DNA from: a virus
Taxonomy: Duplodnaviria > Caudoviricetes
Direction: 5' to 3' (one strand)
DNA length: 47,896 bases
IMG/VR virus record: IMGVR_UViG_3300012943_000013
Span: 1-47,896 of that record
Positions within the stretch are counted from its first letter, which is position 1. Every line of letters begins with the position of its first letter. This document shows positions 9,967-36,179 of the stretch, in pieces. Under the pieces are notes generated by a model. That model was not told the DNA's origin. It saw only the letters and a program-made list of their open reading frames with translations, and ran no database searches. The translations under genes and the position numbers were made by a program.

Positions 9967-10659
9967 TCACCACGAGTCGGCCACGTAGACCGACTGCTTC
10001 TTGCGGGCGACCCACTCGCCGTTATCGTTCTGGGCGACCTGGTGGCTGTACGCCTCGACGCCGCCGATGTCGACGATGCGCTCCTGCCCAGCGCGGATGC
10101 GTTCCATCAGTGATTCGTTGCCGGCGAGGTCACCGTCGCGCATCACGAGGTAGTGCATCGCCTCGTTGCCGATCGTCTCGCAGCGGCGCGCGAAGGGGAC
10201 GTTCTTGTTCGTGATGACGATGTCGCCCAGCTCGTAACCGTGGCTCATCAGGCGGTCGAGCGCCGTGAGCCCCGCGCTGATGAGCACGCCCCGGTTGCCC
10301 TCCTGCAGGTCCCGGAGCTTGGTCGCGTTCGGCTTGATGATGCCGCCCGTCGTCTTCTCCGCCTTCTCGCCATCCTCGATGCTGAGCGGGAAGACGAAGA
10401 TGCGGTCGAAGCTCGCCTGCACCTTGAAGAAGGCGTCGGTGATGCCGTGCTTCAGTCGAGCCGCTTCGAGGCGAGGCGGCAAGCCGAGAGCGCCCTCGGG
10501 GCTCATGTGCTCTTTGATGCGCTCGGTGCGCGCGATCGCCGCCTTCAGCTCCGGGTCTTCGAAGATGCGGTTCGCGCGCTCGCGCTCCTTCTCGTCCCAG
10601 GCGCTGGTCTTCTCCGGAGCCTTAAACTCGGGGAATGAGTAAATCGTCCCGCTGCTCAT
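9967..10659 (-). CDS. groES: GroES/Cpn10-like co-chaperonin with N-terminal extension
   Basis: 'DRIFV..EKTTGGII.P..GVLISAG..GDIV..YLVMRDGDL' matches the Cpn10 pattern including the mobile loop. Confidence 0.75.
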   Translation of the reverse strand: MSSGTIYSFPEFKAPEKTSAWDEKERERANRIFEDPELKAAIARTERIKEHMSPEGALGLPPRLEAARLKHGITDAFFKVQASFDRIFVFPLSIEDGEKAEKTTGGIIKPNATKLRDLQEGNRGVLISAGLTALDRLMSHGYELGDIVITNKNVPFARRCETIGNEAMHYLVMRDGDLAGNESLMERIRAGQERIVDIGGVEAYSHQVAQNDNGEWVARKKQSVYVADSW

Positions 10660-23942: not shown

Positions 23943-24322
23943 GACCGAGCCCCCGACACGAGGCCTACCTCGAGGCGATTGCAGCCCTCGTGGAGGCCCG
24001 GCAAACGCCTACCGCCACGGCCATCGCCGCTCGGCTCGGCGTGACCAAGCAGGCCGCGCACGAGGCCCTCGGCGCCATGGTCGAGAAGGGCGAGCTTCGC
24101 TACTCGCCCCCTCGCCAGGCCTCCTACAAGCTGCCCAAGGTGAAGCCAGAAACCGACTGGGCAGCGATCGCGCAGCGCAATGCCGAGCGGTTCGCGTCTG
24201 TTCCGCGTTGCCGTGCTTGTTGCGGCCGCCCGCTCCTCCGCGGGGCCAGCGACCAATGCCCCTGGTGCAACGCTCAGAACGGGATATCGTCGTCGTCCAC
24301 GTCGGGCGACGACGAGGGCTGA
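23927..24322 (+). CDS. winged-HTH (LexA-DBD-like) protein with C-terminal Zn ribbon
   Basis: 'PTATAIAARLGVTKQAAHEALGAMVEKGEL' plus CRAC..CPWC; AGGAGG RBS. Confidence 0.65.
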   Translation: MAASLRPSPRHEAYLEAIAALVEARQTPTATAIAARLGVTKQAAHEALGAMVEKGELRYSPPRQASYKLPKVKPETDWAAIAQRNAERFASVPRCRACCGRPLLRGASDQCPWCNAQNGISSSSTSGDDEG

Positions 24323-24681
24323 CCCGGGCGAGGTGAGGCCTGACCCTTGCGGTCGGGCCCGCCTCCCTGGAGCAGCACGTCGTTCGCCACGATTTCGGTC
24401 CGGAAGCGCTTCTCGCCGTCCTTCTCGTAGCTCGAGGTCGAGAGGCGCCCCTCGATGTAGAGCCTCGACCCCTTGTCTAGGATGCGCGAGAGGCCCTCCG
24501 CGCGCTTGCCGAAGATGGTGACGTTGTGCCACTCGGTGCGCTCCTGGCGCTGCTTGTCCTTGTCCAGGAATTGCTCGCTGGTGGCCAGCCTGAGCTTCAG
24601 CACGGCGCCGCCACCCGTCTGCTTCAGTTCGGGCGGGGCGCCGAGGTTTCCGATCAGTAGTACCTTGTTGAGTCCCTGCAT
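24274..24681 (-). CDS. ssb: single-stranded DNA-binding protein
   Basis: 'LNKVLLIGNLG','TEWHNVTIFG','KGSRLYIEGRL' and C-terminal DDDIPF. Confidence 0.97.
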   Translation of the reverse strand: MQGLNKVLLIGNLGAPPELKQTGGGAVLKLRLATSEQFLDKDKQRQERTEWHNVTIFGKRAEGLSRILDKGSRLYIEGRLSTSSYEKDGEKRFRTEIVANDVLLQGGGPDRKGQASPRPGQPSSSPDVDDDDIPF

Positions 24682-28308: not shown

Positions 28309-28939
28309 CCCTCTCGCTCTCCTTCCATTCGCAATTGCGGCATTGCACCGTGGCGACGCCGTTGACCAGCGTCAGTATGGCTCCGCCGTACACTGGACAG
28401 GCTGGGCACTTGCCGCCGCCCTGCAGGCCCTTGCCTTCGCCGAGTAGGCTGCGCACGACGCCCCAGAACGCCAGCTCCGGCATGCGCCTCGCCATGCCTC
28501 GGTTGGCGAGGCGCTGGTTCTCGATGCGCTGCTCGAGGCGCTTGCGCACCTGCTTGCTCTCGTCCAGCTCCGCCCGCAGCCGCTCGACCTCGGCGCTCAG
28601 CCGCGAGCGCTCCCTGACGAGCCAGCACACCGCGTCGATGCGCTCGTTGTGCACCGCGATGCTCGGGATGAGGTTGGCCAGCACTTCGAGGTGCCGCACG
28701 ACGGTAGCGTTGTCGTCCAGCAGCTTCTCGCCTGCCGCCATCACCTTGGCGTACAGCTCGGGCGGCAGTTGGGGCGGGGGCGATGCCAGCGCGCACTCGA
28801 GGCTCCCGCAATCGTTGCAACGGCCCCCATCGCCGACGTACCCGCTCACGCACGGCAGCTTCTCGTCGCTCATCGGTTGCCCTTCCCCTTGCCGCGGTTT
28901 CGGATCTCCCCGCTCTTCCCTGGTCACCGGCTTTCTCAT
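28301..28939 (-). CDS. hypothetical protein, coiled coil flanked by Zn fingers
   Basis: CNDC, CPAC..CRNC; start may be 28873. Confidence 0.6.
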   Translation of the reverse strand: MRKPVTREERGDPKPRQGEGQPMSDEKLPCVSGYVGDGGRCNDCGSLECALASPPPQLPPELYAKVMAAGEKLLDDNATVVRHLEVLANLIPSIAVHNERIDAVCWLVRERSRLSAEVERLRAELDESKQVRKRLEQRIENQRLANRGMARRMPELAFWGVVRSLLGEGKGLQGGGKCPACPVYGGAILTLVNGVATVQCRNCEWKESERDD

Positions 28940-29193
28940 CGCTTCCCCTTCGCCACCTTGAGGCGGATGGAGGTGATGGGCTTTAGCGCTTTGCGTCGCA
29001 CGCCGGGGTCAGCGATGGCGCCCTTCTCGTGCAGCTTCTTGAGCCGATAGCGCACGCCGGTCCAGTGCACGCCGAGGACCTTGGCGAGCTCGCGGAGCGT
29101 CGGCGGGTAGCCGTGCGTGAGCACGTAGTTGGTGTGAGCGGCCAGGGTCTCCTTTTCCCCCGTGGTCAGCTCGAGGTTCGGGGCTAGGGGCAT
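28936..29193 (-). CDS. LexA-type winged-helix repressor, DNA-binding domain only
   Basis: 'HGYPPTLRELAKVLGV..GVRYRLKKLHEKGAI'; 85 aa with no S24 peptidase; divergent from the xis/int operon. Confidence 0.75.
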   Translation of the reverse strand: MPLAPNLELTTGEKETLAAHTNYVLTHGYPPTLRELAKVLGVHWTGVRYRLKKLHEKGAIADPGVRRKALKPITSIRLKVAKGKR

Positions 29194-29448
29194 GCGTTCT
29201 GCGTTTCCTTCCGTTAACGTCTGGACTTGAGTAAACGGTTTATACATCATGTAGACACCGTGCCAGTTGATCAACCCCAATCGTCACCCCGCTGGGGGAT
29301 GTGTGGGGCGCGCACCCCCGCGCACCGAACTGACACGCTCGAGGCGTTTGGCCATGACACGTCACCGCCACGGTCTGTATACCGTAGCGGCCCGGTAGCG
29401 AGACGTAGCGCAGCACACGCTACGTCCGGACACAAGGAGGTGGAACCG
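29194..29448. promoter_or_regulatory. divergent control (switch) region
   Basis: AT-richer start, GTTTATACA motif (also at 32916), several inverted repeats. Confidence 0.55.
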
Positions 29449-29790
29449 ATGGACGAGTTTCTGGACAAGCTCGCCGAGGTCTTAGCTAAGAAACTGGCTA
29501 AGTGTCTCGGCGGGCCCGACGGCAATGCGTTGGTCGGGCAGGGCGAGAGCCCGCTCGGCCCACGCAAGCACTGCGCTGCTGTACGGCGCAGGCTGGCCCG
29601 CAGTGAAGGGGGAGCTGCCCGAGTGGGCAAGCGATATCTACTCACCCAGGAGGCGCTCCAGGCGGAGCTGCGGATGGAGAGCGGGCCCGTGAACGACACG
29701 GACCCACCCGCCGCCGCTGCTCTACCGGTCTCGGACCCCGAGGACGACGCCATCTACGAGAGCCTCCTGCGCAAAACAGGAAGGAAGTAA
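29449..29790 (+). CDS. excisionase-like / recombination directionality factor candidate
   Basis: AAGGAGG RBS; 'AARVGKRYLLTQEAL' wing motif; immediately upstream of the integrase. Confidence 0.5.
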   Translation: MDEFLDKLAEVLAKKLAKCLGGPDGNALVGQGESPLGPRKHCAAVRRRLARSEGGAARVGKRYLLTQEALQAELRMESGPVNDTDPPAAAALPVSDPEDDAIYESLLRKTGRK

Positions 29791-29794
29791 CGCA

Positions 29795-31066
29795 ATGGCT
29801 AAACCGGTGGAACAAGGCTACGAGATCAGGGTTCGTTTGGGCGGGGGAAAGCGCCTCGAGCGCAACATCCCCAAGACGCTGACGCAGACCCAGGCCGATG
29901 CTCGGGAAGAGGTGATCAAGGACCTCGCCCGCCTGCTCAAGGCCGCCGGTGACCCCAAGGCAGCACACATCATGCTGAGCGACCTCGCCACCGCCAAAAC
30001 GGTGGACGAGGGCGCCAAGCTCGAGAAGGCCATCCGGCGCTTCATTCGCGACAACACCGGGCGGGGCACCCCGTCCCCCCAGCCCCACATGATCACGTTC
30101 CGTGAATTCGGGATGCGGTGGGCGACGGGTCAGCTCGCCAAGGAGCACCCCCACTATCTGCGGGTCCCGAGCGACACCCACATGCGCAACAACTGCAGCC
30201 GGGTGCGCAAGCTGAGCGAGACCGTCGGCGACGTGCCGCTGGTGCTGTTCACCCACGAGGATGCCAAGCGCGCGCTCGCCGCTGCCACTCGCAAGGACGC
30301 GAGCAGCACGACGTTCCGTCATCACGCCCAGGTCATCCAGACGATCCTGCGCAAGGCCATCGAGCCGTGCGGGATCATCAAAGCCGAGAAGTACCCACTC
30401 CCCTGGAAGGGCTTCCTCCCCGTCATCGAGGCGCCCCCCATGTACCCCATCCTGTTCCCCCGCGAGGACCGCTCGCTGCTCGGCGAGTCGGACATCCCGC
30501 CGTGGCGCCGGGTGCTCTATGGGTTCTCCGTCCGTGAGGGGATGCGCGTGTCGCATATGTTCCGCCTCAAGTGGGGCAACGTCGACTTCGAGAACGGCAC
30601 CATCACCGTCGGCATCGGCAAGAACAACGCCGACGCCCGCAGCTGGGACCTGAACGCCGGGGTGGCCAAGGTGCTCTACCAGTTCAAGGGCGGGGCCAAG
30701 GCCCGCGACTTCATCTTCCCCCGGCTCGACCACGACGAGATCGTCGAGCTCGCCGAGGGGCTGCGCACCGACCTCAAGCGGGCGGGGCTCGAGCGAGCCG
30801 ACCTGTTCGCCAGCGGCGACGGGCAGGAGCCCATCCGCTTCCAGGACCTGCGAGCCACGTTCGTCTCCCTCCACCTCGCCATGGGGTGGAGCGAGGTCGA
30901 CGTGATGCTCCGGACCCAGCACACCAGCACCACCGTTCTCCACCACCGGTACGCCCGGCGGCTGGCCCTCGCGAAGACCATCGTGAAGCGCCAGGGCCCC
31001 CTCCTTCCCCTGGACCAGGTCCTGAAGGGTGGGGGGAGCCGTGGGGGTAGTGTCCAAGGAAACTAA
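29795..31066 (+). CDS. int: tyrosine integrase
   Basis: 'GMRVSHMFRLKWGNVDF', 'FQDLRATF', 'QHTS...RY'; attP directly downstream. Confidence 0.92.
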   Translation: MAKPVEQGYEIRVRLGGGKRLERNIPKTLTQTQADAREEVIKDLARLLKAAGDPKAAHIMLSDLATAKTVDEGAKLEKAIRRFIRDNTGRGTPSPQPHMITFREFGMRWATGQLAKEHPHYLRVPSDTHMRNNCSRVRKLSETVGDVPLVLFTHEDAKRALAAATRKDASSTTFRHHAQVIQTILRKAIEPCGIIKAEKYPLPWKGFLPVIEAPPMYPILFPREDRSLLGESDIPPWRRVLYGFSVREGMRVSHMFRLKWGNVDFENGTITVGIGKNNADARSWDLNAGVAKVLYQFKGGAKARDFIFPRLDHDEIVELAEGLRTDLKRAGLERADLFASGDGQEPIRFQDLRATFVSLHLAMGWSEVDVMLRTQHTSTTVLHHRYARRLALAKTIVKRQGPLLPLDQVLKGGGSRGGSVQGN

Positions 31067-31269
31067 TCGATTCAGCATGATTTACGGTACGCCCGGAGGG
31101 AATTGAACCCCCGACTAGCGGATTAGAAATCCGTCATGGCGCCAATGGCGCCCGTTGGTGGTCTAAAAACTCCGAGTAATCCTCCTCCAGGCGCCACGAG
31201 CGGCGCCTACCCCCACCCGTCCGAAGCCAGGGTGGGGGTAGCTGGGAGGGGGGTATGGGGGGAGCCGTG
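31030..31269. repeat. 14-bp direct repeat TGGGGGGAGCCGTG flanking the attP core (putative integrase arm sites)
   Basis: Copies at 31030-31043 and 31256-31269; GTGGGGGTAG also occurs on both sides. Confidence 0.6.
31085..31134 (-). mobile_element. attP: attP core: 3' half of tRNA-Arg(UCU)
   Basis: Minus strand ACGGA-TTTCTAA-TCCGC-TAGTC-GGGGG-TTCAATT-CCCTC-CGGGCGT-ACC; no D arm or 5' acceptor strand. Confidence 0.88.
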
Positions 31270-31329
31270 CCCCCGAGAGACCACGTACCCACATGACGTG
31301 GGGAGTAGGGCCAAGGAGGGCCCCCACCG

Positions 31330-31617
31330 ATGCAAGCAGACCGACCCTTACCGCCTCGTCCGCCCACCGCTCGCCGCGTCACCAAGAAGCAGATCGAGGT
31401 CCTGCAGTTCATCCTCGACCACCAGGGCAAGCACGGCGTCGCCCCCACCCGGATCGAGATGCGGGTCCACTTCGGGTGGCGCTCGACGTTCTCGTCCGTC
31501 ACCCACATCGAGTCCCTCGCTCGCAAAGGGCTCGTGACCTGGACCCCGACCAAGGCCCGTACCCTCAAGGTCACCGAGGCGGGGCGCATGGCGGCGCGGA
31601 TGGGGGGCTCGCTGTGA
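31330..31617 (+). CDS. LexA-type DNA-binding domain protein (no peptidase)
   Basis: 'TKKQIEVLQFI..HGVAPTRIEM..HFGWRS..HIESLARKG..KARTL'; AAGGAGG RBS. Confidence 0.85.
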   Translation: MQADRPLPPRPPTARRVTKKQIEVLQFILDHQGKHGVAPTRIEMRVHFGWRSTFSSVTHIESLARKGLVTWTPTKARTLKVTEAGRMAARMGGSL

Positions 31618-32657
31618 GGCAGTACTGGACCCCCGTCTTCCGGGACATGCTGCAGTCGAGCATCTGGATCACCGACCCCACCACGCGGTGCGTGTGGATC
31701 ACGTTCCTCTTGAGCGCCGACCCCGAGGGCTACGTGCCGGGCGCCATCCCCGGTATCGCCCACGCCGCCAACGTGAGCCTCGAGGACGCCGAGCGCGCCA
31801 TCGCTCTCCTGCTCGCCCCCGACCCGTACTCGCGCTCCACCGAGCACGAGGGACGGCGCATCGAGACGGTGCCCCGCGGCTGGCGCATCCTCGGCTTCGT
31901 CGAGGCGCGCAAGCGGGCGGTCGCCGAGAGCGAGAAGAGCCGCAAACGGGAGTGGGCTCGGACCAACCGGAAGCGGCTCGCCGCCAACGACAACGCCGAC
32001 CCCGAGATGGGCGACACGATCGTGTCGTCGATGCCCGTAGCGACGAGTAGCGAAACCGTCGACGCAACTAAAACGAAAACCAAAACTAAAACTCTCTCCT
32101 CGGAAGGAGAGATCCCCCCTACCCCCCACGGGGTCTTCGACGCTCCAGTGCAGCCGCTCGTGCTGCGGGAGATCCCCGAGGGGCTGAGCTTCGAGCACCT
32201 GCGACCCGAAGCCGTCGCGGCGGGCGTCACCCCTGCCGACTTCGACCGGCGCCTCGCCGACCTGCGCAAGGGCCCCATCGGGGGCCAACGTGGGGTGTTC
32301 GCCCACAAGCTGGACGACTACGTGAGGGGCTTCTTCGGCAACTGGAAGACCTGGGGCGAGACCGAGCGCGTGAAGGCCCAACGCGACGCCGTGGCGCCAC
32401 CAGGACGCGCCTTTGGCGGCGGGGTGGGGGGTAACCAGGGGGGACCCACCGGAGCGCGCTACACGGGCTGGGGACGCAACCCAGACGTGCGCCATCGGGA
32501 GCTCGCCGAGAAGCTGAAGCTCGACGTCTACGGTGAGCTTCGGGACTTCATTAGCAGCGGCGCCGCCGACCTCGTGACCCACGCCGAAGCCGACAAGCTG
32601 TTCGCCGCTCACCTCAAGCGCCGCGCCACCGAGAAGCGCCAGCGGGGGGTCGCGTGA
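31614..32657 (+). CDS. replication initiator / replisome organiser-like protein
   Basis: N-terminal wHTH ('SSIW..D..TRCVWITFLLSAD..G'), charged helix, TKTKTK linker typical of phage O-like initiators; GTGA coupled. Confidence 0.7.
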   Translation: MRQYWTPVFRDMLQSSIWITDPTTRCVWITFLLSADPEGYVPGAIPGIAHAANVSLEDAERAIALLLAPDPYSRSTEHEGRRIETVPRGWRILGFVEARKRAVAESEKSRKREWARTNRKRLAANDNADPEMGDTIVSSMPVATSSETVDATKTKTKTKTLSSEGEIPPTPHGVFDAPVQPLVLREIPEGLSFEHLRPEAVAAGVTPADFDRRLADLRKGPIGGQRGVFAHKLDDYVRGFFGNWKTWGETERVKAQRDAVAPPGRAFGGGVGGNQGGPTGARYTGWGRNPDVRHRELAEKLKLDVYGELRDFISSGAADLVTHAEADKLFAAHLKRRATEKRQRGVA

Positions 32658-32860
32658 AGACCAACATCGACGTCGACTTCGAGCTGCGCCGCTGTTGGAC
32701 GTGCGGGCGCTTCTACTACATCGAACGGGAGCGCCGCGCCGACTGCCCCTACTGCGCCGTCCGGCTCGAGCATGAGGCGCAGGCCTTCGCGGCCCAGCTC
32801 GCCCGGTCCATCGTCGCGCTGCGCGGCACCATCACCCGCCTCAAGAAGCGACGACGCTGA
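32654..32860 (+). CDS. small Zn-ribbon/coiled-coil protein
   Basis: CWTC..CPYC. Confidence 0.65.
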   Translation: MKTNIDVDFELRRCWTCGRFYYIERERRADCPYCAVRLEHEAQAFAAQLARSIVALRGTITRLKKRRR

Positions 32861-32897
32861 TTTGTGTCCCGCCCCGGGACGAACACGCCAGATTGCC

Positions 32898-32926
32898 TTG
32901 CAGACAGTAGAACAAGTTTATACAAG
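32898..32926 (+). promoter_or_regulatory. putative promoter/operator for the recombination operon
   Basis: TTGCAG-17-TACAAG in an AT-rich island, containing GTTTATACA. Confidence 0.45.
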
Positions 32927-32940
32927 AACAGAGGTGACCC

Positions 32941-33123
32941 TTGTTTGTGATCGAGTTTATTTGGAAGCAGCGGCTCTACGATGCCGAGGAACCCAACGAC
33001 CTCGACTGGACTCCCATCCTGTCCGTCGAGTACGCGACGGAGGAGCTGGCCAACGACAACTGCCGGCTCTGCGAGCTGGACGATTCCAGCTACGTCTACC
33101 GCCCGCGGGAGGTGGCAGCGTGA
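32941..33123 (+). CDS. small acidic protein
   Basis: GAGGTG RBS; GTGA coupling to the next gene. Confidence 0.6.
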   Translation: MFVIEFIWKQRLYDAEEPNDLDWTPILSVEYATEELANDNCRLCELDDSSYVYRPREVAA

Positions 33124-33377
33124 CCCGGAGCGCCTCGCTCTACGCCGAGCACCGAGCCCGCGATGGGTTCAAGCGCAACATGGATCGCCTGCGCCTGGCG
33201 CTCGCGTTCGGTGACGCCCGCCGTCACCTCGACCCCCTGCTCGAGCTGTGCGAGCTGCACCTCGCTGGCTGCGGCGACAACCGGCTCGCCGACGACTTCA
33301 AGCAGCAGCTCGACCGCAGCAAGCGGCTCGTCGAGGTGCGTCACATCCTGCTCTCCAAGGAGGCCGCCAATGATTGA
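33120..33377 (+). CDS. hypothetical helical protein (ends EAAND)
   Basis: Coupled GTG start. Confidence 0.6.
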   Translation: MTRSASLYAEHRARDGFKRNMDRLRLALAFGDARRHLDPLLELCELHLAGCGDNRLADDFKQQLDRSKRLVEVRHILLSKEAAND

Positions 33378-33771
33378 GCTCCGCGAGTGCTGCGCCAACT
33401 GCAGCCGCAACCTCTGCCTCTACGAGCGCCACAGCTCCTGGGTCGTGTCCTGCTACCACGGCTGCTACGACCCGGGCGCCGACGACTCGGCCGTCGCCGA
33501 GCTGCTCTCGGGCTGGGGCGATACCCCCGAGGACGCGATGACCGACTACGTCAACAGTCGGGAGGCGCTCGACCTCGACCCCCTCTACGTGCCGAGCGAG
33601 CTGGCCTCGTTCATCGTGCCGCCCCCACCCGAGGGCTTCGTCATCAGCCCTGACCCGAGCGAGCCCGCCCGCTTGTTCTTCGAGAGCCTGTCCAGCGCCG
33701 AGCGCCACCCCGAGCTCGGACCCATCTACTACGGGCCCATGCTGGCCCAGAAAGCAGCGAACGACTCATGA
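33370..33771 (+). CDS. hypothetical protein (ends KAANDS)
   Basis: AGGAGG RBS, Cys-rich N-terminus, ATGA coupling. Confidence 0.6.
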   Translation: MIELRECCANCSRNLCLYERHSSWVVSCYHGCYDPGADDSAVAELLSGWGDTPEDAMTDYVNSREALDLDPLYVPSELASFIVPPPPEGFVISPDPSEPARLFFESLSSAERHPELGPIYYGPMLAQKAANDS

Positions 33772-35309
33772 CCGCCACCGCCGAGAACCTGGAACTCGTC
33801 CCCGCCTACGACCGCATCGCCCTCGTCGACCTGAGCGCCCGCTTCAAGCAGACGTTCCACTCGGGCGAGCCGAGCACGGCAGCCGAGCGCACGATGGCGG
33901 AGCTGACCTCCATCAGCGCGGATGTCGAGCACATGATCATCTGCGCCGACGCGCCGCCCTACAAGCGCGCGGCGGTCTTCCCGGACTACAAGGCGCACCG
34001 GGAGGAGCCGACCCAGCAGGAGGTCTACCAGAAGAAGCTGCTAGGGCGCCTGCTCAAGCAGCGCGGCTGGCCCGTTGCCAAGGTGGACGGGTACGAGGCG
34101 GACGACGTCATCGCGACGCTCGCCCGCATCTACGGGCAGTGGTGCCCCGAGGTGCTCATCCTCGGCGCCGACAAGGACCTGGCCCAGTGCATCACGGCCA
34201 ACGTGCTGCAGATTGTCCCCGCCTCCGGCGAACGCCAGACGGCGCGGCGCGATATCAAGGGCTGCAAGCAGAAGTTCAAGGTGCTGCCCGAGCACATGCG
34301 GCTCTACCAGGCGCTCTGCGGCGACAAGGAAGACAACGTCCCGGGCGTTCGTGGCATCGGCGCGAGCGGCGCGGCCACCATCGTCGACCAGCTCGTCGAG
34401 GCGAAGCTGCCGGTCACCCCGGAGGGCATGGTCGAATTCCTCGCCTACGCCAAGGAGGCGCCGCCGCGCCCCTGGTCCCTCGTCGCCGACCACTGGGAGC
34501 AGCTGCGCCTGTCCTTCGTCCTGGTCACCCTCGACACCAACGTCCCCCTCGACGCCGACGCCTTGCTCGCCAAGCCCACACGACCGGAGCCCACCCTGAT
34601 GCCACAGCCCGAAGAGACCCCGGCCCCCGCCAACGAAGTGACCGAAGCCGAATTCGATCCCATCAGCGACAACCGTGAGGAGAAGCCTGCACTGCCTCCG
34701 AAGCCGGCACCCGTTGCCACCGAGCCCGCTCCCGCCGCGACGGCCATCGTCAAGGTCAAGGAGTGGGGCACGGTCGACGGCAAGCTGCAGCCAACGGACC
34801 TCCAGAGCGCCTGGCAGATCAGCAAGATGCTGTGCGCCAGCGGTCAGTACGGCAAGAAGTTCGGCACAGCCGAGGCCGTGTTCGCCGTGCTGATGCGGGG
34901 GCGCGAGCTGGGCATCAGCGCCGGCACCGCGCTGCTCGGCTTCCACGTCATCGAGGGCAAGCCGAGCGCGAGCGCCGATCTCCTCCGGGCCCTCGCCGAG
35001 GGGGACCCCAATTGCGAGTACTTCATGCTCGTCTCGTCCGACGACAAGCACGCCACCTGGGAGACCAAGCACAAGAAGCACCCGAGGCCCAAGCCCTTCA
35101 CCTACACCATCGAGCAGGCCCTGCTCGTCCCCGAGTACTGGAAGAAGGACAAGTGGGGCAACGACCCCAACTGGGTCAAGCGCCCCGAGGACATGCTGAT
35201 CAAGACGGCGGGCTCGAAGCTCGCGCGCCTCGTGTACCCTCGCGCCTGCCTCGGCCTCTACTGCGCCGAGGAGATGGGCCTCCAGACGTACGAGGAGGCC
35301 GCCGCATGA
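33768..35309 (+). CDS. fusion: FEN/PolI-type 5'-3' exonuclease plus RecT/Redbeta-like ssDNA annealing protein
   Basis: Exo: 'PDYKAHR','YEADDVIATLA','ADKDLAQ','GDKEDNVPGVRGIG'. Pro/Ala/Glu linker. SSAP: 'RGRELGI..AL.GFHVIEGKP','W.KRPEDML...LARLVYP'. Confidence 0.8.
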   Translation: MTATAENLELVPAYDRIALVDLSARFKQTFHSGEPSTAAERTMAELTSISADVEHMIICADAPPYKRAAVFPDYKAHREEPTQQEVYQKKLLGRLLKQRGWPVAKVDGYEADDVIATLARIYGQWCPEVLILGADKDLAQCITANVLQIVPASGERQTARRDIKGCKQKFKVLPEHMRLYQALCGDKEDNVPGVRGIGASGAATIVDQLVEAKLPVTPEGMVEFLAYAKEAPPRPWSLVADHWEQLRLSFVLVTLDTNVPLDADALLAKPTRPEPTLMPQPEETPAPANEVTEAEFDPISDNREEKPALPPKPAPVATEPAPAATAIVKVKEWGTVDGKLQPTDLQSAWQISKMLCASGQYGKKFGTAEAVFAVLMRGRELGISAGTALLGFHVIEGKPSASADLLRALAEGDPNCEYFMLVSSDDKHATWETKHKKHPRPKPFTYTIEQALLVPEYWKKDKWGNDPNWVKRPEDMLIKTAGSKLARLVYPRACLGLYCAEEMGLQTYEEAAA

Positions 35310-35548
35310 GGACCGCCGCCAAGCGCTCGACCGTCACCGTCATCAGCGGCGAGGTCAGCCTCGAGGAGGTGGTCAAGTGGATCAGCCGGGAGCTGCCCAT
35401 CCCCAAGGGCTCCGAGGTCAAGGTGTGGGTCGGCGATGACCCGCTCGACATGGCCGTCAACCTCGGCAACCCCCTGCGCTTCACGGTGCAGTGGACGGGG
35501 TCGGAGGACCTGGCCCTGCAGGCTACCACTCGCGAGGTTGGAGCCTAG
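35306..35548 (+). CDS. hypothetical protein
   Basis: ATGA coupling; 80 aa. Confidence 0.6.
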   Translation: MRTAAKRSTVTVISGEVSLEEVVKWISRELPIPKGSEVKVWVGDDPLDMAVNLGNPLRFTVQWTGSEDLALQATTREVGA

Positions 35549-35693
35549 CCCGCCCCGCGAACCGCACCCAGTATTCGAGCAGAGCGTCGCCGATCACTTC
35601 GGCGGCGCTCTTGTTTTGTGCAGCCGCGATGCGCGCTACCCGCTCCGCCAGCTCGGGGGTGAGCACAGGCACTCGCGAATGAGAGCGACCCAC
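35523..35693 (-). CDS. ribbon-helix-helix-like small DNA-binding protein
   Basis: 'LTPELAERVARIAAAQNKSAAEVIGDALLEY'. Confidence 0.45.
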   Translation of the reverse strand: MGRSHSRVPVLTPELAERVARIAAAQNKSAAEVIGDALLEYWVRFAGRARLQPREW

Positions 35694-35962
35694 TGATGGG
35701 CCTTGCGCCACTCGTTCGTCGGGAACCTGAGCACCCTCCACCCGAGCAGCGTCGCCTGGTTCAACTTCTCGCAGTCGTTCCTCTGCCCCCCGTACGTGCG
35801 GTGGTACTTCCCGTCCACCTCCACCGCCAGCTTCTGGCTCGGGAAGGCGAAGTCGAAGCGCCAGCGCCTCGTCGGGTGGAACTGGTACTCGCGAACCAGG
35901 TCCCACCCCTCGATGGGGCTTTGCTCCAGAGCGGCGGCCAGGCATTCCTCCCCCTTACTCAT
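35636..35962 (-). CDS. PD-(D/E)xK endonuclease (DUF559/Vsr-like; possible resolvase)
   Basis: 'EYQFHPTRRWRFDFA...AVEVDG...DCEKLN.A.LLGWRVLRF'. Confidence 0.8.
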   Translation of the reverse strand: MSKGEECLAAALEQSPIEGWDLVREYQFHPTRRWRFDFAFPSQKLAVEVDGKYHRTYGGQRNDCEKLNQATLLGWRVLRFPTNEWRKAHQWVALIRECLCSPPSWRSG

Positions 35963-36179
35963 CGTAGCGGTTCGGCGAGCGCTTGAGCACCACCGTCTTG
36001 GCCGAGGCGCGCGCCGCTGCCGTCGCCGAGTCGACCTGCTTGCGGATGCCCTCGACGTCCTTGAACGTGAGCGGGTGGGGCGGGTCGCCCTTCGGCTCGC
36101 TCAGCTTGACGATGACCCACTCGATGCCCTTGAGCGCGTAGAGACCGAGCGCGCGGGTGAGGCGCGGGGGGATCTTCAT
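35955..36179 (-). CDS. hypothetical protein downstream of the endolysin
   Basis: ATGA-coupled, 74 aa (MKIPPRLTRALG...). Confidence 0.55.
   Translation of the reverse strand: MKIPPRLTRALGLYALKGIEWVIVKLSEPKGDPPHPLTFKDVEGIRKQVDSATAAARASAKTVVLKRSPNRYDE

Follow-up and report, generated by a model that had tools for sequence, protein, structure and literature searches.

The window analyzed here, the whole stretch of DNA of a virus record that is complete at 47,896 bp, has direct terminal repeats, and has a GC content of 67%, carries a gene in which a FEN/PolI-type 5′ nuclease and a RecT/Redβ-like annealase share one reading frame. We think that this gene probably specifies a one-gene single-strand-annealing recombinase, which links a FEN-type nuclease covalently to an annealase of Redβ/RecT fold and takes the place of the usual two-gene exonuclease-annealase pair. 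Both the fusion and its use as a one-gene nuclease-annealase had been proposed in an earlier, sequence-only reading of this DNA; the former is borne out by Pfam, PHROGs, and the predicted folds, and the latter gains strength because no PD-(D/E)XK exonuclease was found alongside the fusion and because the annealase has been exchanged within the family. Coordinates are collected in Table 1.

Table 1. Features of the fused gene and its surroundings in the window.
Feature	Position	Strand	Basis or remark
SSB ending DDDIPF	24274..24681	-	Pfam; 9 kb from fused gene, opposite strand
Tyrosine integrase	29795..31066	+	Pfam; integrase in 16/27 fusion-bearing genomes
Most conserved neighbor, 336 aa	31647..32657	+	Homologs in 18/35 fusion loci
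Fused nuclease-annealase gene, 513 aa	33768..35309	+	Single open frame, no internal stop
PolI/FEN-type 5′ nuclease, aa 14-270	33807..34577	+	Ligands, helical arch, helix-3-turn-helix
Disordered Ala/Pro/Glu linker, aa 271-333	34578..34766	+	Net charge -6
Predicted internal start	34586..34601	+	GGAG 34586-34589, 9-nt spacer, ATG (M278) 34599, -5.8 kcal/mol
Redβ/RecT-fold annealing domain, aa 334-505	34767..35282	+	Profile, Foldseek, VIA
C-terminal Ala-Ala-Ala and stop	35298..35309	+	Stop overlaps start of next gene
Terminator-like hairpin	35581..35611	+	Consensus match; 3′ of gene block

Pfam assigned 5_3_exonuc_N to aa 30 to 169 of the fused protein (84.6 bits; cutoff, 34.3), 5_3_exonuc to aa 173 to 265 (44.5 bits; cutoff, 40), and RecT to aa 456 to 509 (31.8 bits; cutoff, 24; a short match of 54 aa). 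The PHROGs matched were the exonuclease phrog_107 and the RecT-like phrog_4171 (E = 4.7 × 10−10). In the AlphaFold prediction (34 sequences; mean pLDDT 87), both domains were ordered and the linker between them was disordered, and structure comparison of each half, a check named in the sequence-only reading, recovered a FEN-type fold and a Redβ/RecT fold. Every nuclease motif listed in that reading is present (LVD, CADAP, YKAHR, EADD, DKD, and GDKEDNVPGVRGIG), and its Pro/Ala/Glu linker of ∼60 aa measures about 63 aa. The RecT-like strings it quoted are also there, WVKRPEDML among them, but the spacing had been written slightly off for GRELGISAGTALLGFHVIEGKP and LARLVYPRACLGLYCAEE.

We also considered whether two adjacent genes had been joined artificially, by misassembly or read-through. 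The linker, where a stop or frameshift might have been expected on that reading, is open in frame. No RNA data set was listed as carrying the gene. One Logan contig spans the fused gene with no difference or gap; it may come from the same source and so is not independent, and a relative (L093) is frameshifted, both of which leave some room for an artifact. However, a search with the C-terminal half returned 113 proteins (query included), and 107 of them also carry the nuclease, the other 6 being shorter stand-alone annealases. Because this evidence is independent, a frameshift artifact is unlikely. We further collected 266 fused proteins of full length, which fall into 120 groups that share less than 55% identity, and ESM Atlas clusters have the same architecture. 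With 107/113 two-halved homologs and 202 full-length fusions that conserve the key residues, the artifact reading is effectively refuted, and we give it a negligible chance.

The nuclease half has a PIN-like core in which all seven acidic PolI ligands are present, along with the helix-3-turn-helix (H3TH) aspartates (ligand list of PolI-type 5′ nucleases from PMC5499597, Table 2), as well as a basic helical arch, the H3TH double-stranded DNA-binding motif, and the corresponding fold. Its acidic metal ligands are D21, D61, E110, D112, D113, D135, D137, D186, and D189, which align to Taq from D61 onward. Across 202 full-length fusions, D21, E110, D113, D135, D137, D186, and D189 are invariant (202/202), D61 and D112 are each kept in 201, and the arch residues Y74, K75, and R78 are kept in all 202. 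Given this retention of acidic ligands and arch residues in 201 to 202 of 202 fusions, the nuclease is very likely catalytically active. The best structural matches of the full model were PEN1, ExoIX, T5 FEN, and Taq (Foldseek; TM[target] of 0.73 to 0.87 against PEN1 and ExoIX); the fusion nuclease keeps the full acidic ligand set, whereas that of ExoIX is reduced. In trees, all of which are quick trees with SH-aLRT support only, the phage nucleases separated from PolI domains (support, 99; 30 of 45 eligible PolI rows) and from the stand-alone viral FENs sampled (support, 95). One “solo” row inside the phage nuclease clade, L270, runs off its contig.

For the C-terminal domain, all three comparisons gave Redβ (7UJL) as the top match: profile search (E = 4.5 × 10−5), Foldseek (E = 1.8 × 10−5; TM 0.57), and VIA (Z 9.2; rmsd 3.5; 138 aligned; LiRecT second at 6.3). 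RAD52 and Sak were weaker matches amid a dsRBD background. The domain is of RecT/Redβ type by PF03837 and by fold, and 21/21 aligned members match. W469 corresponds to Redβ W143 (201/202 fusions) and R487 to Redβ R161 (202/202), residues that are described for Redβ as DNA-binding, near-universal, and functionally critical (PMC9512822). Predictions with four copies of the domain gave head-to-tail packing (0.70 versus 0.00 for the best control, on a score whose mark was reached by 20/30 solved pairs and 1/23 single chains), which may echo solved Redβ/RecT filaments; contacts agreed at ≥92% between runs, with pLDDT of ≥82.

The layout of the protein departs from that of RecT and Redβ, in which the annealing domain is N-terminal and a partner-binding domain (CTD) is C-terminal (PMC9870868): fused annealases end 0 to 10 aa past the core, compared to tails of 24 to 299 aa in the unfused relatives found in this set of loci. 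The Redβ CTD binds λ Exo and host SSB, and the contact with SSB has been termed absolutely required (PMC11611040); Redβ without the CTD anneals yet gives no recombination in vivo (PMC5052646). Since the CTD and the SSB contact are essential in Redβ, the CTD-less fusion protein must bypass that step. The sequence-only reading had envisaged action at Okazaki gaps and use in recombineering. This now appears doubtful, because the protein has no CTD and CTD-truncated Redβ anneals without recombining (PMC5052646), and a fork-based recombineering use is less likely than had been hoped. Its suggestion of a cognate SSB was not supported: the SSB gene is real, but PF00436 was found in 1/27 fusion-bearing genomes, the window's own. 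We rejected SSB as a conserved partner and regard it as accessory in the window genome.

Between the two domains, the linker is of low predicted confidence (pLDDT <50 at aa 285 to 309) and varies in length from 34 to 228 aa across the family. Initiation at M278 within it would likely yield a 236-aa, nuclease-free annealase. Across 120 dereplicated proteins, the frequency of Met was 6.1% at linker positions 10 to 19, 3.2% at positions 20 to 29, and ∼1% at most others, and an ATG fell within the first 40 linker codons in 28/35 loci. A Shine-Dalgarno (SD) site of ≤−6 kcal/mol accompanied such codons in 18/35 loci (taking the best of several ATGs per locus) versus 4.7% of 321 in-domain ATGs. For ATGs at +8 to +22, the median SD energy was −5.7, compared to −2.3/−2.4 for controls; early-linker ATGs surpassed both late ATGs and non-ATG positions. 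Acidic codons themselves mimic SD sites (shuffled mean of −4.5 versus −5.5 observed); nevertheless, the SD of early-linker ATGs outdid synonymous shuffles in 26/36 cases (P = 0.002). The pattern was replicated in 31 further nonredundant loci, 25 of which had an ATG at +8 to +22 and 14 an SD of ≤−5 (median SD, −5.0 versus −2.1). The early ATG is absent in 7/35 and 6/31 loci, respectively, so the internal start is not universal. A VTEAEFDPI-like linker motif was seen in 16/120 representatives only.

In the fused gene itself, the internal SD is only GGAG but is stronger than the SD at the gene start (−5.8 versus −1.0 kcal/mol). The gene start overlaps the stop of the upstream gene (ATGA), and because of this overlap and the weak SD, the fused gene is likely to be translationally coupled to its upstream neighbor. 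The expected outcome would be that the full-length protein is the minor product and that free annealase is made in larger amounts. At the other end of the gene, a terminal Ala-Ala was present in 18/43 fused genes versus 25/576 other called genes in the same loci, in 7/18 versus 7/286 where stop and start codons do not overlap, and in 45/120 family representatives. In Escherichia coli, recognition by ClpXP depends critically on a terminal Ala-Ala, which does not suffice by itself (PMC10862746). The Ala-Ala end is thus a possible ClpXP degron and no more than a lead; shared ancestry also contributes to its enrichment.

A profile search of 1.84 billion representatives returned 1,892 matches at an E value of ≤1 × 10−30. 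Among the best 150 of these, all of which end ≤23 residues past the core, the nuclease was full in 106, partial in 16, and missing in 28, the last of which appear to be 5′-cut fragments. In the annealase tree, which omits 22 near-duplicate or cut loci, 44/45 fused annealase domains fell into one clade (support, 98), with L149 as a long-branch outlier. Searches of cultured phages gave 224 weak matches (27 to 28% identity among the 30 listed), and a scan of genome contigs with the full alignment, in which PolI dominated the matches, gave the annealase domain in 0/80 loci. The architecture is visible in databases as ESM Atlas clusters that share it and are named automatically.

The nuclease has not kept a single partner. 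Among the best 120 of 1,312 matches to the nuclease half, 91 carried a RecT-type domain, 27 another domain, and 2 were cut or frameshifted. Four of those 27 were scanned, and these match PHROG 3290 “single strand annealing protein” (E of about 1 × 10−50). In a PolI-rooted tree, 12 phrog_3290-type rows nest in and interleave with a young RecT-type subclade, forcing at least 3 changes, and the RecT-type partner looks ancestral and the phrog_3290 type derived. No match was obtained when the phrog_3290 domain was aligned to the RecT-type profile, nor did its alignment find a Rad52 structure by sequence; judging from its motifs, it may be Rad52-like. On one viral contig (L246:2737-4575, plus strand), a FEN domain that lies within the fusion nuclease clade (SH-aLRT 95) is in frame with a Sak4-like AAA_24 annealase. 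Viral and metagenome scans for this FEN-Sak4 fusion gave back only the L246 sequence, making it a single unreplicated case. In L246, AAGGA lies nine bases upstream of an in-frame ATG at the domain junction.

Several other loci depart from the common form. At L232:2962-4552 (plus strand), a fused-clade nuclease is followed by a frameshift and then a phrog_10048 open reading frame (ORF), possibly a fourth partner or an assembly error. At L093:8725-10573 (plus strand), the frameshift falls in the last nuclease motif rather than in the linker and is probably an error or a pseudogene. L224:2734-4116 (plus strand), on a 73.6-kb viral contig, joins a PolI-like 5′ nuclease to a 174-aa C-terminal part that matched neither Pfam nor PHROG families.

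To place the fusion among the recombination genes of its phages, we compared 49 of 71 candidate records after dropping shorter and near-duplicate ones: 22 were unfused and 27 fusion-bearing (in one of the latter, G003, the end of the record truncates the fusion gene). The PD-(D/E)XK (YqaJ/RecE-like) exonuclease families PF12705, PF09588, and PF10926 were found in 0/27 fusion-bearing versus 13/22 unfused records and, among records ≥90% complete, in 0/23 versus 5/8. Since the fusions form one clade, the 0/27 contrast amounts to nearly one evolutionary event, and a Fisher P value overstates it; 9/22 unfused genomes are likewise without a match to the three families. Where a PD-(D/E)XK nuclease is present, it often adjoins the unfused annealase. 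In L135, L144, and L158, a DNA_pol_B_exo2 3′-5′ exonuclease-like gene adjoins the unfused RecT-type gene, replacing the 5′ exonuclease. Neither PolA (0/27) nor PolB (0/27) was found in the fusion-bearing genomes.

The window carries terminase, portal, tail, and endolysin genes together with LexA-like repressors (Pfam/PHROG), and its tyrosine integrase marks the phage as temperate, judging from gene content. The fused gene lies in a plus-strand block downstream of the integrase, and its stop and start codons overlap both neighbors. Two LexA-like DNA-binding genes flank the integrase (28936-29280, minus strand; 31330-31617, plus strand). The most conserved neighbor matched neither a Pfam nor a PHROG family; we take it to be, possibly, a replication initiator. 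No sigma-70 promoter match was found within 29000 to 36000, and the 4 terminator-like hairpins found in the region by consensus match compare to 3.6 expected by chance. A small DUF559 endonuclease-like gene (35636-35962, minus strand), with homologs near 5/35 fusion loci, converges on the block. Elsewhere, a weak GroES-like PHROG match (E = 6.7 × 10−4) occurs among the head genes (9967-10659, minus strand), and DNA methyltransferase genes (N6/N4, Dam, and C5) recur around the fusion gene in loci L083 to L149. The best 9 SSB matches among 38 titled genomes include 6 titled as Myxococcota and 1 titled “Deltaproteobacteria ACE_MYX2,” a weak hint toward a Myxococcota host; the ESM Atlas taxa for SSB were uninformative on the host. 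In a 401-genome sample of the phylum of a Myxococcales-titled genome, 16 genomes had matches, all unfused in the loci read, so that no host is named by a prophage.

Taken together with the retained active-site residues, these observations are consistent with the following model. Like T7 gp6 and T5 FEN, the nuclease would start at ends or nicks in phage DNA and digest the 5′ strand. On the 3′ strand thus exposed, the tethered annealase would nucleate an oligomer packed head to tail, and the covalent linker would do the loading that in Redβ falls to the contact between CTD and exonuclease. Initiation at M278 would supply nuclease-free annealase for filament extension, so that the 1:1 limit of a pure fusion would be removed. 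After annealing, the nuclease may trim 5′ flaps that have been displaced, leaving a nick that can be ligated. Such an enzyme would likely serve to join ends of the phage chromosome, form concatemers, and repair breaks, and less likely to anneal strands at the host fork with the help of SSB. A broader version of this model strikes us as possible but doubtful: the nuclease clade might be a universal loading module for plug-in C-terminal annealases (RecT/Redβ, phrog_3290, and the ATPase Sak4), in which the nested start sets the ratio, a ClpXP degron caps the lifetime, and the CTD-less design carries no host-SSB specificity. If true, it would offer a host-portable, one-gene enzyme for double-stranded DNA assembly and recombineering.

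Alternatively, the nuclease could be a finisher only, clipping 5′ flaps after the annealase has assimilated a strand at gaps or D-loops, with resection left to the host. Its nearest folds are indeed flap endonucleases (PEN1, ExoIX, and T5 FEN), PolI-type domains favor 5′ flaps (PMC5499597), flap removal after annealing has been proposed for T7 gp6 (PMC4124056), and in the available text of these two papers long resection is documented for T7 gp6 and not for the clade of the fusion nuclease. However, the fusion nuclease stands in for the PD-(D/E)XK resection nucleases that adjoin unfused relatives and has the full ligand set that ExoIX lacks, and we judge a purely finishing role unlikely. A replicative role in RNA primer removal at Okazaki gaps, akin to that of the PolI 5′ domain or T4 RNase H, in which the annealase would keep hold of the single strand, would agree with the family function of 5_3_exonuc_N (PMC5499597) and with the position of the gene in an early block, close to a conserved gene that may be related to replication. 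The lack of PolA and PolB in the 27 genomes means that host PolI would be expected to do this job, SSB is not conserved, and there is no CTD for contact with SSB or the fork, all of which make this role very improbable.

It is also conceivable that the tether is unneeded and that a nuclease for host DNA breakdown or defense evasion merely shares a frame, for economy, with an annealase for recombination. An internal start would make the annealase independently, the linker is disordered and variable in length, and T7 gp6 degrades host DNA too (PMC4124056). Yet the linker frame stays open in 107/113 homologs, and the position after the nuclease is filled by any of three annealase families. No close stand-alone nuclease was found (the best match under 282 aa had an E value of 6 × 10−23 and 34% identity), and in loci L081 to L162 no FEN gene lies beside an unfused annealase, except for the frameshifted fusion L093. 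We consider an arrangement for gene economy alone improbable, and the tethered recombinase remains the reading that we prefer.

No description of a FEN-annealase fusion was found in the literature searched, a scope outside which subscription papers, bioRxiv supplements, and InterPro lie. By term look-up, the fusion is unmentioned in the available text of PMC11611040, PMC8093625 (with supplements), PMC9870868, PMC5499597 (with supplement), PMC7824862, PMC12825301, and PMC13454183. The large family carries only the label “5′-3′ exonuclease” at its sources. This analysis adds that SSB is not conserved and in which direction the partner was swapped, together with the FEN-Sak4 fusion and the terminal Ala-Ala. 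The fusion offers a natural answer to how the nuclease of an exonuclease-annealase recombinase loads its annealase, and with the nested start it bears on how a 1:1 complex gives the excess annealase that coats long single strands (PMC11611040, PMC9512822). A strongly conserved, CTD-less annealase is, moreover, a direct test of the need for the CTD-SSB contact in phage recombination. If active, a tethered 5′ nuclease and annealase would be a candidate one-enzyme reagent for DNA assembly.

Among known systems, lambda Red (Exo and Redβ) and Rac RecE and RecT are two-component recombinases of the EATR/SynExo type, defined by a separate exonuclease and annealase in protein-protein contact (PMC11611040). 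The fusion resembles them in its Redβ/RecT-fold annealase with W143 and R161 equivalents, its 5′-3′ nuclease partner, and its temperate phage. It differs in being one polypeptide from a single ORF, in its FEN/PIN-fold rather than PD-(D/E)XK nuclease, in the C-terminal position of its annealing domain, in having no CTD, and in a likely second start for free annealase. MxRecET of myxobacteria, used for recombineering of the RecT type and native to the phylum weakly indicated for the host, is a two-gene RecE/RecT operon, with no fusion shown in the available text (PMC13454183). The sequence-only reading had held that FEN-family nucleases are not used in such systems, which does not stand, as the T7 gp6 FEN/5′-3′ exonuclease is needed in T7 recombination and is stimulated by gp2.5; gp6/gp2.5 is thus a two-gene FEN precedent (PMC4124056). 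In T7, RecA-independent recombination depends on this FEN-family 5′ nuclease, which acts with an annealing-capable partner (PMC4124056), a pairing that the fusion resembles. Unlike the fusion, T7 uses two genes, its gp2.5 is an SSB and not a Rad52-superfamily annealase, and it has its own polymerase; where a T7-type system combines a FEN with an SSB annealase from another gene and with a phage-encoded PolA, the nuclease here has a fused, Redβ-fold partner, and PolA was found in 0/27 fusion-bearing genomes. Finally, the nuclease shares its fold, acidic metal ligands, helical arch, and H3TH motif with the PolI 5′ domain, ExoIX/Xni, T5 FEN, and plastid PEN1, but fusion nucleases form their own clade, distinct from the stand-alone viral FENs and PolI domains sampled, and the place of the PolI polymerase is taken in them by an annealase.
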